Positions 8,452-49,140 of a stretch of 64,000 bases of DNA are shown in pieces; position 1 is the stretch's first letter; each line of letters opens with the position of its first letter. The position numbers and the translations under genes are program-made. The notes under the pieces are model-generated. The model had not been told where the DNA came from. It saw nothing but the letters and a program-made list of their open reading frames with translations, and made no database searches. Source of the DNA: Octopus vulgaris (taxonomy: Eukaryota); contig OX597830.1 of the NCBI GenBank assembly GCA_951406725.2, positions 23,374,001 to 23,438,000 of the forward strand, in the 5' to 3' direction.

Positions 8452-10890
8452 TATTTCATAAATATTTGCCATGAAGGTATTACAAAGAGGGAACTGACAA
8501 GAACAGACAAACATAAAAGGGTGAAGTGGCTGTAGCGATTAAATATTTACAATTTAAAAATACAATAATTTAATGAATAAGCTTATAATTTTTGACTTAA
8601 GCGTTGCTCATTACAAATGAAATTTGTAATGGCTTCTCTGAAGGATAGGCATCCAACCATCAGGGTAGACCCCTTGGTTTTTCTTTCCTGTTTTTGGCTT
8701 CCACTTATTTGGTGTCAAACACTCCCAGTTTCCTCGCCACGGGCTTCCATCTTCTCATGAATTTGTCTCGTGACAGGTACCTCTTCTCCAGCCTGATCTT
8801 ACTACTGAGGAGGTAACTAAAAAAAGTTGACCAGACCCTGGCCGGATACAAAGGTACCCATCTCTATGCCTCTCACACGCGTCTTCCATAGTGTTTCTTC
8901 CAGTATGGCTACTACACAGAAAAAGCAAACCTTCCTCGGCACAACCTCGATGATAGATTCAGCTGATAGCTGTACTCTCCCCATCGATGACAACAGTTGC
9001 TCTGCGAAAACTATCAGTCTCGTTAATTCCGGACATTCCACAAATGCGTGCAAGACAGTTTCCCTCACGGCCCAATGCGCGTACTTTAGCCCGAACTCTG
9101 CACCCCACATGTTTGGCTTTGAGATGCAGAGCCCAACCTCAACGCCTCCTCTAGGTCCTTAACAAGTTGCCCCTCTATTCTGGCCTTATCTAGTCTTAGC
9201 TGACGGCTAAACCTAATAGACTCAAAACGAATGGCTCTCTTGAGGGCGAACCACCATCGGTTATTCACCACCGCGCCGGTTAACGCCCTCTCTACTAATT
9301 CCTCAATCCGGCTACGGTATGCCTCGCAAGTCAAAATAGATCTGTTCAGCTTCCAGTAGCCGGATCCCCTCTTAACTGTACTATATATGTCCAGTCTACA
9401 CTTAACCATTCTATGGTCAGTGTAAGCTACTTGGACAACCTGTGGACAGCTAAAACTAGACTTATTTCCAGTTCTTATCACTATCCTATCTAAATAGGAC
9501 TTGAACCTTCCGTCGCCACTCATGGGACGTTCGGATGGTCAAGTCTGTAACGGTCTGCCAGCTGAAAACACTTGAGCAGATCTACGAGACGTGAGTTTAC
9601 TTTCCTATAGATTGAGCTAACGCTATCGATGCGTACGTCATCTGTAGCGTTATTGTCACCTAACACCACTAATGTCTTCGACGTTACGAGAAAGTTCTCT
9701 AAGCGCCGATAAAAATCAGTTTGAATTCCTCTAGCACAAGGTGCATAGATCCCGATCAACCTGAAGGCCTTACTGCTGTATGTCACATCAAGGACGACCA
9801 CCCCACCTTCCGGGTCTACATAGACTGTGCTTGTCTGCAGAGCCAAGCCTTCTCGAACCCGTACTGCTACACCCCCTCGCCCTCCTGTCCGGCTAGGAGA
9901 CATGATTTTCTCATAGTCATTCAGGAGGGACGAGAAGGCTTGTAGACTCTGTCTAGCTTGGTCTCTGTAGCAACCATCACATGCATATCGTGTGATCTAA
10001 GGTCGTCGAGGAAACAAGCTTGCTTCCACTTCGAGCTCAGACCACGCACATTCAAACACCCAAGGTTAAGTGCAGTCATTTAAAACAAAAGAAAAGCAAG
10101 GGTTCTAGTCACTCTTTGACTTATTCTTTTATTGGTGATGCTGGGGCTGACCTCACCACACGTGACACGATACAGCAGCTACTGCAGCGAAATTTTTTGC
10201 TGGCTCATGCAGCTGGTATGTTTCTTGAATTATTTCGACCGACATATTCGTTCGGAATAAATTTATACTCAATTTAATCCTAGAAAATGGGAAACCTATA
10301 ATTTTTTACTTTTTTTTCTCTCAACGAGGACAACAGTTCAAATCCCACCCCCACTGGGCGGGGGGAAGCGAGACGTAACAACAAAGTCTACAAAGTTCGA
10401 AATTAATTTTTTTGTTTAAACATAATAATAAAAATACAGAATCCCCCAAAACGGGAAACCTATAATATTTTTTTCTCACAACGAGGACAACAGTTCAAAT
10501 CTCACCCACGCTAGGGGCGGGGTGCAACAATTGAGCCTACAACGGCTAAAATTTAATTTTTCACGCAATAATAAATTGATTATCCCCCCAAACGGGAAAC
10601 CTATAATATTTTTTTCCTCTTAATGAGAATAACAGTTCAAATCCCACCCCGCTGGCTTTAATAAGTTCAATATTAATAATATTAATAATTTCAATATTTC
10701 AACAATTACTTTCTCCCGTCACCGGGAAAAAGCACAAAAATTTTCAAAGTTTAACAATGTTCAACAGTTCGAAAATATTCAACAATAAACAACAATCCCA
10801 ATAGAAAAACTATCCAACGTTCAACAAAACGTTTGACTCACCGCCCCAAAAAAACAACAACAAAAAAAAAACACGTCTATCCACGACAGA
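8452..10890 (-). mobile_element. Internally deleted Tx1/L1-like LINE with TSD
   Basis: ORF2 starts at 10079 (MTALNLGCLNVRGL...ATETKL), with APE motifs GGVAV, IYAP, LGD.N, YLDRI, TDH, GYWKLN, joined directly to the C-terminal ETVLHAFVECP zinc-finger region (RT absent). TSD ggtaagcaagcta(c/t)tt at 8436-8451 and 10891-10906. Confidence 0.88.
10285..10660. repeat. Three tandem ~140-165-bp repeats in the LINE 5' UTR
   Basis: gggaaacctataat...aacagttcaaatc(c/t)caccc recurs at ~10289, ~10453 and ~10594. Confidence 0.85.
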
Positions 10891-16876: not shown

Positions 16877-18260
16877 TAGGCGTAACTGTGGAGCAAGAAG
16901 TCAGAAGTTTGCTTCCTAACCACATGGTTTCGGGTTCAGTTTCACTGCCTGGCTCCTTGAACACGTATGTTCAACTGTATTTCTGGACCGAGAAATGCCT
17001 TGTGTGTGGAAACTGAAAGAAGCCCATCGTAGATATAAAGATAAATATATACGTGGTTTGATCAATAAGTATCCGGACTGTTGTCATGGTATCGAAGCTA
17101 TGACTGTTGTCATAGTATCGAAGCTATGACTGTTGTCATAGTATCACGTACAGTGAAGTCGGTTGGCACGGATTGAACTTGAACTCTGCATGCGAACTAG
17201 ATTTTAACGTTCTAGCTCACTTCAGCCGTCTGCAGCAGTGCTTGGAAGGAACGTGTGTCGCGTGTGATCGTCGCATTGACCATGAAAAAGTTGAGCAGAG
17301 AAACTGCTTTAAATTTTGCCAATACCTGATCAGAGATCTACGCAAAGTTTTCAAAAAGTTTTCATCGTTCTCCGCAGAATCAAGAATATCTTCTGCAATT
17401 GAAACCCGAGTTTCTTTTTGCCCAGCTGAAAGCAGTTTGGGCATAAATTTGGCTGACATGCGGTTCATACCTAAATTTTCAGTGATAATGGACTGAATTG
17501 AACCGTAACTAATCTGCATATCCTCTGATAACTCACGGATGGTAATTTGACGATATACCCTCACAGCTGCATACTCATCTGCGATGTTTTTCTCAGTTCT
17601 GCTGGTTGCAGGTCTCTCAGAACATTCATCACTCTCGACATTTTTTCGGCCATCTTGGGAACATCTGCACCATTCGTACACTTGTGTGCGGCTCATTCAC
17701 TCCTCTCAATACACTTTATACAACTTTGCTCAGGCCTCTGAGCAGGTACCGCGTTGGCAACTTTCTATGCGACGATCACACGCTAAACACGTTCCTTCCA
17801 AACACTGCTGTAAACAGCAGGAGTGAGCTAGAACATTAAAACTTAGTGCACATGCACAACAGAGTTCAAGGTCAATGTATGCCAAGTGGCTTTATTCTGC
17901 GTGCTTTAGCTTCGATACTATGGCAACAGTTCGGATACTTATTGATCAGACCTCGCATATATATATAGTTGTGTGTGCGTGTATGTGTGTGTGTATGTAT
18001 GTGTGTATGTGTGTGTGTATGTGTGTGTGTGTGTGCGTGTGTGTGTGTGTGTGCGCGCGAGTGTCTTTATAAATGTGTTTATTATATACCGCCGATTGAC
18101 AGCCAGTGTTGGTGTGTTTACGTCCCCGTAACCTACCGGTTCAGCAAAGAGACCTATAAAATAACCACCAGCCTTAAAAAAAGTACTGGGTTTGATTCGT
18201 TCGACTAAAATTCTTCAACATGATGCCACAGCATGGCCGCAGGACACTGACTGAAATGTT
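16877..18260 (+). mobile_element. SINE family A interrupted by mariner
   Basis: Head at 16877-17050, tail at 17958-18260. Confidence 0.7.
17051..17957 (-). mobile_element. mariner (irritans/Hsmar2-like) foldback derivative
   Basis: TIRs cgtggtttgatcaataagtatccg / cggatacttattgatcagacctcg; minus ORF MSRTQVYEW...RPATSRT...TIREL...SAKFMPKLLS...DENFLK. Confidence 0.9.
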
Positions 18261-21631: not shown

Positions 21632-21734
21632 GGAGTAAACACATAAATGTGAAACAAGGTGGAAAAAAAGAGTACTCAAATACCAGTGGTAGAGTAATAT
21701 GCTTTATTTAAAGCAGCAGAAAATTCAACAAAAT

Positions 21735-21772
21735 CTGTTACTCTGAGTTTCTCGTTGCCGTTCATCAGACAG
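21735..21772 (-). ncRNA. Minimal type I hammerhead ribozyme motif
   Basis: CTGT-CTGATGA-aCG-GCAA-CGa-GAAAC-TCAGA-GTA-ACAG: cores intact, GUA cleavage triplet, one mismatch at the base of stem II. Confidence 0.7.
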
Positions 21773-37915: not shown

Positions 37916-38491
37916 CACAGACGTGCAAGAAGTAAATAGACACCTTTAATTTTCGAAATCTTTTATTTGATATTAATTGGTTGAAGGAGAGGTTTTCTTC
38001 TAGCTACTCGTCCATAATACCCAAGCTTATGCAGATATGTGACACACGTTCTTGGACTAACTTCTAGCTGTTTTGCAATGTCAGAAGCCTTCGAACGGAG
38101 TTCGTTTTCCACAATTCTCTTCAAACAACGAAGCTTCCTTTCCGAGGGCCCAGGTCGGCCGGGACGAGTATCTGTTGATTCTTTTCCTTGGCTTTTGAAT
38201 TGCACTATAATTCTATTAACAGTAGCAAGAGGAATTTGAAGATTTTCGGCAATTTTTCGCTGGCTAAGACCAGCCTCAGATTGCCCAACAATACGACCTC
38301 TTTGAAAATCTGACAGTTCTGCTGAATTTTTGTGCGTGACATGGTTACTCTTTGCAAATGTTTAATACAATGGCACCTGGAATGAAAAAGAATAATTACA
38401 TTGTAAATTCACACCGCTGAAAACATATTAAGACGCTTAGATCAAAAATTTTGAAAATTAAAGTTGTCTATTTACTTCCTGCTTGTCTGTG
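37916..38491 (-). mobile_element. Internally deleted Tc1-like transposon
   Basis: TA-flanked TIRs cacagac..gca.gaagtaaatagaca; [15 protein letters not shown]...RPGRP...[13 protein letters not shown]; DDE domain deleted. Confidence 0.9.
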
Positions 38492-39569: not shown

Positions 39570-40065
39570 TCCGGGTTCAGTCCCACTGCGTGGCACCTTG
39601 GGCAAGTGTCTACTACTATAGCCTCGGGTCGACCAAAGCCCTGTGAGAGGATTTGGTAGACGGAAACTGAAAGAAGCCCGTCGTATATATATATATATAT
39701 ATATAATAACAAAACCACTATTTTGCAAAACAAACAAGGAAAGACCTAATCAATACATAAAAATTTTTAATATAAAGAAATAAACCGCCACTACAATCGT
39801 TTCATGTCTTCAATGACATTCGTCAGGTGGATTTTCGATCTCCTAATCTGTTTTAATTTTTATATATATATATATATGTGAGTGTGTGTGTTTGTGTGTG
39901 TGTGTATGTGTATGTGTTTGTGAGTCTGTGTTTGTCCCCCCGACATCGCTTGACAACCGATGCTGGTGTGTTTACGTCCCCGTAAGTCCTGGGGTCGATT
40001 TGCTCGACTGAAGGTGGTGCTACAGCATGGCCGCAGTCAAATGACTGAAACAAGTAAAAGAGTAA
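39570..40065 (+). mobile_element. SINE A with a ~150-bp hammerhead-bearing insert in its TA tract
   Basis: Family A halves at 39570-39700 and 39870-40065. Confidence 0.85.
39788..39830 (-). ncRNA. Minimal type I hammerhead ribozyme (consensus-intact)
   Basis: CCAC-CTGACGA-ATGTC-ATTGAA-GACAT-GAAAC-GATT-GTA-GTGG: stem I 4 bp, stem II 5 bp, short near-palindromic stem III, GUA triplet. Confidence 0.8.
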
Positions 40066-40073
40066 ATATATAC

Positions 40074-47899: not shown

Positions 47900-48180
47900 G
47901 CCTTTCCACAGCTTCTAACGCTGGAGATGTACTACAGTGTCAGCTGTTCACGACCAGTGAACTAAGGTAACACCTCTTATTTTTCGAGCACCTTCCGGAG
48001 TATTCGAGCGGTTCCAAGCAGTGCTGTTTTCTGCAAGTGTTCCACCCTTATTGCAGCCTCTATATGTTCCATGTACTTTTCGAGATTTTTGCTCACTGTT
48101 CCTAGGGCTCCGAAAATTATTAGTACTACTGCTACCTTTTTCATCGACCACAACTGCTTAACTTCCCAAGCTAACCTGTC
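47899..48180 (-). mobile_element. R4/Dong-like LINE 3' end abutting (TAA)n
   Basis: EVKQLW...IIFGALGTVSK...LQKTALLGTARILRKVL is the typical R4-clade RLE C-terminus; it runs into a TAA repeat on the minus strand. Confidence 0.8.
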
Positions 48181-49140
48181 ATCTCTCTCTTTCTTCTTCG
48201 CTTCCCCTCCCTCATCCCTAGGATCCTTCGGTGAGCACCCACTGTTGCTCACCTTCTTCCTCTTGCGACCCTTCTTTGAGGAGTCCTCCGTCTCCTCGGC
48301 CGCCTTCGAACGTTCTTCAACATAAGTCTCAATCAACTGCTCCAGGACTTTGCTTTGTTCCTGAGGACAGTTTTTCTTTATATGACCAGGCTCCAGGCAC
48401 CGATGACACCGTGGGTGGGGGGGAGACCCCAAGAATCACCGGGTACCTTCCCCCGGCCATTTTCAAAAAGTCTGACATAACCAGAGTCATGACTGGTTGT
48501 GTCCACAGGGTCAAAACAGCTTTTGACCCAACCCAATCAGCCGCAGGAAGAATTTTCACATTGAGGAACCTGGGTCCGCTGCCACCCAGATCCCGGCGGA
48601 TAGTATCCTCTATCCACTGGGGTTCAATTCCGAGTGGCAAACCACAGACCCAAGCCCACGTCAATTTTTTCCCACAATAAGTGTGAAGAAACAAAATTTC
48701 TTTACCCTCAAGGGGCTGGCTCGCAAAACTGCGAGCCTCGTCTGGGGTGTCAAACAGCAACCACACCGTTGCACATTTGACACCCCTGGAGATTTACTTA
48801 ATGGTCGGCAGATGTTCCGCCAACTCCTGCTCAATCATCTGCTTGGAGAAGACGGAAATGGTGTCGACAACCTGTCTAAGCCACTCCTTAGGTGGGACAA
48901 TCTCCCACTCTACAATCTTATCCGTATTTTTTGCCATGTTTTAAATTAAAAAATAAAAAAGTCCAAAACACTAGTTCACAAATTTCAAAAATAAAAGAGA
49001 GAAATAAAAAGGAAACAAAAGGGAAGAAGAGAAAAAGCAAATAGTTCAGTAAGAAAGTCACAATAGAAGAAGAAAACAGTTCAATAAAGAGTCACGATTA
49101 AAGAATAGAAGAAAACAACAGTTCAACAAAACACAGCAAA
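48181..49140 (-). mobile_element. Tx1/L1-like ORF1 remnant plus 5' UTR
   Basis: Start at ~48938 (MAKNTDKIV), RRM-like segment, CCHC knuckle CHRCLEPGHIKKNCP; cagttca repeats in the UTR as in the first Tx1-like element. Confidence 0.75.

Follow-up and report, generated by a model that had tools for sequence, protein, structure and literature searches.

The hammerhead motif at 39788..39830 (minus strand) of the window, by which we mean the whole 64,000-nucleotide stretch of Octopus vulgaris DNA analysed here, is by its sequence the type I hammerhead of a young Penelope-like element (PLE) of the Hydra clade. Spliced sense RNA of that element was most likely the template from which the copy in the window was reverse-transcribed. 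We consider it likely that the insert arose once, as a side product when synthesis was primed internally close to the 5' end of this RNA, and that it is inert alone. A hammerhead in an octopus PLE of the Hydra clade is of a kind already known, and the ribozyme is ordinary for PLEs. The importance of this work rests on a census of copies, in which short spliced copies and long unspliced ones separate cleanly.

The minus strand from 39830 to 39788 reads CCAC CUGACGA AUGUC auugaa GACAU GAAAC GAUU GUA GUGG (43 nt), exactly as an earlier note on this DNA had claimed. Stem I has 4 bp (39830-27/39791-88), the core CUGACGA occupies 39826-20, stem II is 39819-15/39808-04, GAAA is 39803-00, the palindromic stem III lies at 39800-39793, and the predicted cut after GUA falls between 39792 and 39791, all on the minus strand. 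The motif has the core of a type I hammerhead (CUGANGA, GAAA, NUH), and both our descriptor and direct reading confirm what the note said of it, that the core is complete and stems I and II are paired. The note also called stem III palindromic, which is right, and one change short of perfect, which is not: the 8 nt are fully self-complementary with two G.U pairs, and fold prediction allows them an intermolecular 8-bp duplex of -5.8 kcal/mol. The descriptor calls for the core, a stem I of at least 3 bp, stem II and NUH. Its sole match within the window is this one, shuffled sequence gives 0.02 matches per window, and none of 100 shuffles yields a match with stem II of at least 5 bp and stem I of at least 4 bp. 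A loose pattern of the core only is uninformative (7 matches in the window, 4.2 expected). The exact 43-mer has 298 copies in the genome. The motif is real, and a chance match is ruled out. The Rfam hammerhead covariance models, proposed earlier as a check, give no match to it at E<=10; the motif lacks the G10.1-C11.1 pair and has A-U at 10.1-11.1. In the MFE fold stem I could be extended by 5 bp across a 5-nt bulge (39835-31) through pairing of 39840-36 with 39787-83 (span 39783..39840, minus strand). Across 14 variants 89% of the cells of this extended helix are paired, with zero two-sided changes.

The motif lies within an insert of about 150 nt, which interrupts a high-copy SINE-like repeat at its TA/TG tract. 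The left part of the host repeat, with a B-box-like GGTTCAGTCC, is at 39571..39684 (plus strand, 16 blast hits in the window) and the right part at 39906..40068 (plus strand, 23 blast hits in the window); by blast within the window, 9 further copies of the repeat have the tract without the insert. We read (TA)n target sequence at 39685..39708 on the 3' side of the insert and a (TA)n/(TG)n tract at 39862..39905 on its 5' side. The host repeat, which we tentatively read as tRNA-derived, matters only as a TA target. The earlier note had correctly put the hammerhead in the TA tract of a SINE, but the SINE plays no other part; the note had also seen a ribozyme insert of ~150 bp but neither its parent element nor its splice junction. 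Two additional A (39860-61) stand beside the remnant of the PLE first exon, of which the last 20 of 27 nt are present (39840..39859, minus strand) and match the exon that long copies have ahead of the GT donor. At 39839..39840 (minus strand) the copy reads GGAG/ATCG: exon 1 is joined exactly to the ribozyme exon, precisely at GT-AG, and the GT...AG intron of ~1.1 kb is absent. Beyond the ribozyme lies 5' UTR/pLTR sequence (39709..39787, minus strand), which has one private substitution, ends ~10 nt before the usual "short" 3' end described below and lacks the 87-nt tail.

The parent unit runs in the order exon 1 (27 nt), intron (1.1-1.9 kb), ribozyme, 5' UTR and an ORF of ~840 aa; after the ORF comes a 3' region of ~1.7 kb, and then exon 1, intron, ribozyme and tail are repeated. 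In one long copy (L061) the 27-nt exon ends at a GT donor; an intron of ~1.1 kb follows up to its AG acceptor, then come 9 nt, the ribozyme, the 5' UTR and the RT ORF. The endonuclease half was found in another (L103). In full units the two ribozymes are 5.5-6.3 kb apart. A search at the protein level brought up many relatives, 12 of the top 30 having open frames of 820-862 aa, and an intact 840-aa RT-endonuclease ORF, in which we read the motifs YRDD and VVY...YIG, is present in the genome. The family is young, with intact ORFs. It has what defines an EN+ PLE: by motif, a single ORF with RT and a C-terminal endonuclease of GIY-YIG type, and, in its copies, pseudo-LTR tandems, an inverted 5'-clipped copy and an optional tail. 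Pfam and PDB returned no RT, GIY-YIG or nuclease hit for the ORF protein.

Our first guess for the parent, the Neptune clade, was dropped against the motif definition of the Hydra clade, for which we use the consulted portion of Craig et al. (2021, PMC8557442). The intact ORF has RIKWK (a variant, position 41), DKT (128), YRDD, CxCx5C (CTCRDKSNC, 691), YIG, CxxC (CYLC, 797) and CxH (CRH, 826), has no CX2-5CxxC, and by eye follows the published Hydra alignment. On these motifs, and not on a tree, the parent is a Hydra-clade PLE. With the clade as described there, Hydra-1_Obim included, it shares the C-terminal endonuclease, DKT, the CxCX5C linker, CxxC and CxH around a conserved E/N, and the (TA)n target. 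The ribozymes share the type I form, an extra base on each side of a stem II closed by U-A, and a palindromic stem III of the form AC..GU. The differences are that units there are under 3 kb against 5.5-6.3 kb here, that RWK reads KWK and the linker is Asn-rich here, and that the same portion of the paper describes no intron or spliced copies. Compared by eye, protein and ribozyme are both unlike those of Hydra-1_Obim, and we believe this family to be new and distinct from it, which bears out the phrase "uncharacterised octopus element" used earlier. Among named homologues, those of Octopus bimaculoides (63% over 26% of the query) and Argonauta come nearest, and our literature searches found no published description of an octopus PLE hammerhead of this family. 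In protein P0004 (locus L136) asparagine makes up 38% of the linker that separates RT from endonuclease (residues 480-620), much like the N-rich inserts of rotifer PLEs (PMC3846280). Other PLEs came up along the way. Loci L152-L155 hold a second Hydra-like family with ~54% RT identity and open frames up to 955 aa; a ribozyme was looked for in the fetched stretches and none was found. A broken PLE from another clade, with a CX4CxxC linker, lies at L099:1249-3050.

The ribozyme agrees with the minimal PLE hammerheads of Cervera and de la Pena (2014, PMC4209133, likewise cited from the portion consulted) in being type I, in occurring in both repeats and mostly in dispersed single or inverted copies, and in its palindromic stem III; in D. 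virilis Penelope, too, the end of the intron adjoins helix I. It departs from their minimal form in lacking the G10.1-C11.1 pair, which they list as highly conserved, and in a stem III of 2 bp with a 4-nt loop. This makes it an example of their "small palindromic helix III" variant rather than of the strict minimal form, and its splice site, 9 nt before stem I, differs from the PLE hammerheads they describe. Many published Hydra ribozymes also lack the pair. Among our 14 variants 10.1-11.1 is unpaired in 9 and is U-A, U.U or A.G in other lineages, N7 is variable, and H17 is A or U across lineages. A group of 36 full-length copies has GUU for GUA at the cut site; this is a propagating lineage in which NUH is still satisfied.

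In 18 source copies selected by RT similarity, none of the 30 core and stem columns holds a shared variant, against 57 of 345 columns in the non-coding flank (p 0.013) and 10 of the 13 free ribozyme columns (p 1.5e-7), p values that are optimistic since the source lineages are related. The earlier note had allowed for a core conserved no better than its flanks; it is conserved better, and the motif is likely under selection in the source elements. The free positions are also far more variable than third codon positions (18/199 in the same copies) or UTR in the alignment of L106-L134, and hypervariability without explanation is noted in PMC4209133 as well, in the part consulted. Helices I and II (4 + 4 pairs) are invariant in the 14 variants. 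Covariation in the stems, also suggested as a check, does not rise above shuffles (0.048 vs 0.054).

Most lineages have a perfectly palindromic stem III; in the lineage of the window it is wobble-paired, and in one it has two central mismatches. Fold prediction leaves stem III unformed in the monomer (probability 0-0.01), with no stable monomer helix III. Folded in isolation, the window motif scores no better than shuffled sequence (z 0.0), stem I of the window copy has a predicted probability of ~0.14 in its own context, and the monomer fold is disfavoured in most lineages. We rejected a fold switch controlled by splicing as a general feature: stem I of lineage A goes from ~0.9 (unspliced) to ~0.3 (spliced), and 11 other contexts, one of them without a scored donor, show no comparable switch. 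Single PLE hammerheads alone did not cleave (PMC4209133, in the part consulted), and cleavage by a PLE hammerhead needed PLE protein (PMC11167929). The short palindromic stem III suits a dimer, and the PLE-type assignment made earlier holds; for the ribozyme to cut, a dimer or help from protein is probably required. Given the stem probabilities in context and the published inactive monomers (PMC4209133), the lone window copy is probably inert. The earlier note had seen in the insert itself a potentially active self-cleaving RNA; we see a solitary retrocopy, clipped at its 5' end and without a partner close by. That it is an active ribozyme cutting host transcripts that run through it strikes us as unlikely. 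In favour of this stand the intact core and the abundance of family sequence among contigs of runs that we guess to be RNA. Against it, this is a single copy with an in-context stem III probability of 0 and the weak stem I just given, published monomers are inactive without partner or protein, and we identified no host gene within the window.

The census covers a large family. The family motif pattern has at least 2,254 matches in the genome, insert copies are 98-99% identical, and many form head-to-head pairs in (TA)n. Among the 298 exact copies at least 181 have both junction and ribozyme exact. Re-examination of 98 of the first 100 listed of the family motifs gave 57 spliced copies, 29 unspliced and 12 clipped between. 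Where the copies end follows their splice state. Of 127 spliced copies at all loci in hand, 123 end between -5 and +21 of the ACTTCA that opens exon 1, with a peak at 0, and 4 reach 14-72 nt further upstream. Every one of the 50 donor-bearing copies runs on upstream, 49 of them by at least 59 nt, lengths that are approximate because intron and 3' region share repeats. Thirty loci were chosen by RT similarity; the 18 that reach back to a ribozyme are all unspliced where it leads into the ORF, and a spliced 5' end with an ORF was seen in none of them (0/18). One apparent case of it (L173) proved on inspection to be a false match of a fuzzy pattern. The 61 inverted pairs comprise 35 spliced/spliced, 17 unspliced/unspliced and 9 clipped, and none that is mixed. 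Copies have two alternative 3' ends ~87 nt apart, short and tailed, and 54 of the 61 pairs join a short end to a tailed one; only 1 is short/short. The tail region at L061:5902-6065 has ~100x the contig depth of the ORF in four guessed-RNA runs, which suggests many more tail-only copies.

We argue that the junctions are true splicing: exon 1 is specific to each lineage, and in lineage B two GT donors, 4 nt apart, are both in use without microhomology. As alternatives to spliced sense RNA, the junction might stem from a deletion at microhomology or a switch of template, or the copies might be made from an antisense template (an idea of PMC3846280). In lineage A, and there only, AG ends both exon 1 and the intron, giving 2 nt of microhomology, and deletions of such a kind occur inside the ribozyme in 2 of 100 listed rows. 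But lineages B and E join exactly at GT-AG with no microhomology, B from its two different donors, and these sites would not allow an antisense template to be spliced, whereas in 35 head-to-head pairs both arms are spliced. We therefore regard this explanation as very improbable, although an antisense route may serve for the unspliced copies alone. Four sets of contigs from guessed-RNA runs cover ORF and repeat and show no joint; the single contig with the junction carries TA-like flank, as a genomic copy would. We found no published description of spliced PLE copies or of a dominant spliced 5'-end class; Arkhipova 2003 and Evgen'ev and Arkhipova 2005 may mention intronless copies.

How would such copies arise? 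Judging by the copy ends, transcription would start near the ACTTCA that opens exon 1. The reverse transcriptase would be internally primed on its own spliced, uncut RNA and the product inserted into a TA repeat. Priming in the upstream repeat of the spliced RNA would give short dead-end copies like that of the window; priming in the downstream repeat, where the intron is retained, would give long copies with an intron. For the pairs, the enzyme would nick both (TA)n strands and prime at two ends on one RNA, and the lack of mixed pairs together with the joining of short to tailed ends fits both strands primed on one RNA at two internal sites. An antisense template for the pairs does not seem to fit, at least for the spliced class. 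In vitro the anole Poseidon PAc (Frangieh et al. 2024, PMC11167929) likewise has an AT-rich target, extends both strands, uses uncut RNA as template and has two internal start sites that define a tail. That tail is 30-40 bp against ~87 nt, before the start codon, in the octopus family; splicing is outside the scope of the main text of that paper.

The short copies could also be a self-propagating non-autonomous family, SINE-like or retrozyme-like, descended from one spliced founder and mobilised in trans. Their number and their identity would suit this, and an intronless Penelope promoter still made RNA in flies (PMC2377424, portion consulted), but we think it improbable. Spliced copies occur separately in six or more lineages, which have distinct first exons and ribozyme variants, and two donors are in use; the use of both 3' ends by most inverted pairs requires a template longer than most short copies; and in the fetched loci short copies are single or head-to-head, with no head-to-tail arrays of short units. 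For the last reason the retrozyme reading of the insert is not supported either. Metazoan non-LTR retrozymes (PMC7229834; bioRxiv 10.64898/2026.07.22.740005, each in the part consulted) are also short, non-coding, PLE-related and equipped with a type I hammerhead, but they form head-to-tail tandem units of their own, whereas the octopus copies are colinear with the 5' end of an autonomous element. Three identical variant copies (G000:C16:20304758, 20312589, 20320698) are spaced by ~8 kb and represent either a tandem array or a duplication.

Internal priming on linear RNA does not explain why ORF copies lack a spliced 5' end. An addition to it would have the ribozyme cut the long RNA at both repeats, the unit piece then being circularised or end-jumped to become the source of all intron-bearing copies; this was raised as a possibility by Cervera and de la Pena, in the part of PMC4209133 consulted. 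It predicts the absence of spliced copies with an ORF, and that unspliced copies never end at the start site (0/50 seen). It also predicts matched repeats at the ends of tandems. The direct tandems are ORF units of 5.5-6.8 kb (2.1 kb in one deleted copy), and in 8 of 9 their repeats differ at 0-8 positions per 650 nt, the ninth having an internal deletion. Against this, 2 of the 8 tandems, and one end of a third, match another locus as closely as their partner repeat, or more closely, in a sparse sample; ribozyme mutants had no effect on insertion in vitro (PMC11167929); and a template jump without cleavage predicts an identical genomic pattern. A lack of copies piling up at the cut site is predicted as well, and is seen. 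Genome-wide, and by eye, 5' ends there show no peak (15 at 0 with a non-A flank, 11 at +1, 9 at -3), point variants and internal deletions being left out of the count; 19 more copies have junctions ambiguous over -2..0. More than 1,261 copies carry sequence 3' of the cut site, cut-site starts make up ~1% of copies, and two 100-copy lists (of 358 and 903) chosen by 3' sequence mostly show intact read-through of the ribozyme. These ends are in line with uncut RNA as the substrate for reverse transcription, and there may be a small fraction of cleaved template. On balance we hold the cut-and-rejoined source only tentatively and would sooner doubt it than assert it. The same reserve applies to the fuller proposal of two template pools, in which capped, spliced, uncut mRNA would give short dead-end 5' copies only, and ribozyme-cut, re-joined unit RNA with its downstream intron unspliced would give all propagating copies.

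Intron retention in PLEs, the choice of sense or antisense template and the role of the hammerhead have been called open (PMC3846280, and the consulted portion of PMC8557442). D. virilis Penelope (PMC2377424) and Chlamys-3_cRei (PMC8557442), as far as the consulted portions go, share with the octopus family a start site in the repeat, a short first exon and an intron in the 5' UTR. Their introns are 75 bp and 398 bp against 1.1-1.9 kb here. Both sources stress intron retention, with introns in "the majority" of Penelope copies (PMC2377424), whereas most octopus ribozyme copies are spliced. If the junctions are read as spliced, the copy census shows that spliced sense RNA serves as a PLE template, and the short copies without an intron suggest why PLEs usually keep theirs. 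The census also makes the circle or template-jump model testable. Were the proposal of two pools true, one mechanism would account for intron retention in PLEs, for partial tandems and for the purpose of the hammerhead, and an antisense template would be excluded for the head-to-head pairs. Annotators should be warned that short hammerhead repeats of "SINE-like" appearance may in many cases be by-products of PLEs.

Several other remains were noted in passing. ORF fragments lie in the window at 8817-9996, 17217-17696, 37963-38361 and 47977-48793, and presumably resemble L1/Tx1, mariner, Tc1 and non-LTR elements. At 21728-21772 (minus strand) the window has a decayed hammerhead of a second PLE-like family, with stem I CUGU/ACAG and stem III ACUCAGAGU, adjoining (TA)n; a relic akin to it occurs in locus L005, and there is a likeness to the published Hydra-2_aMil motif. 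A third type I hammerhead, unrelated to these, also passes the descriptor and lies on the minus strand of locus L028, near position 956 of the reverse complement.
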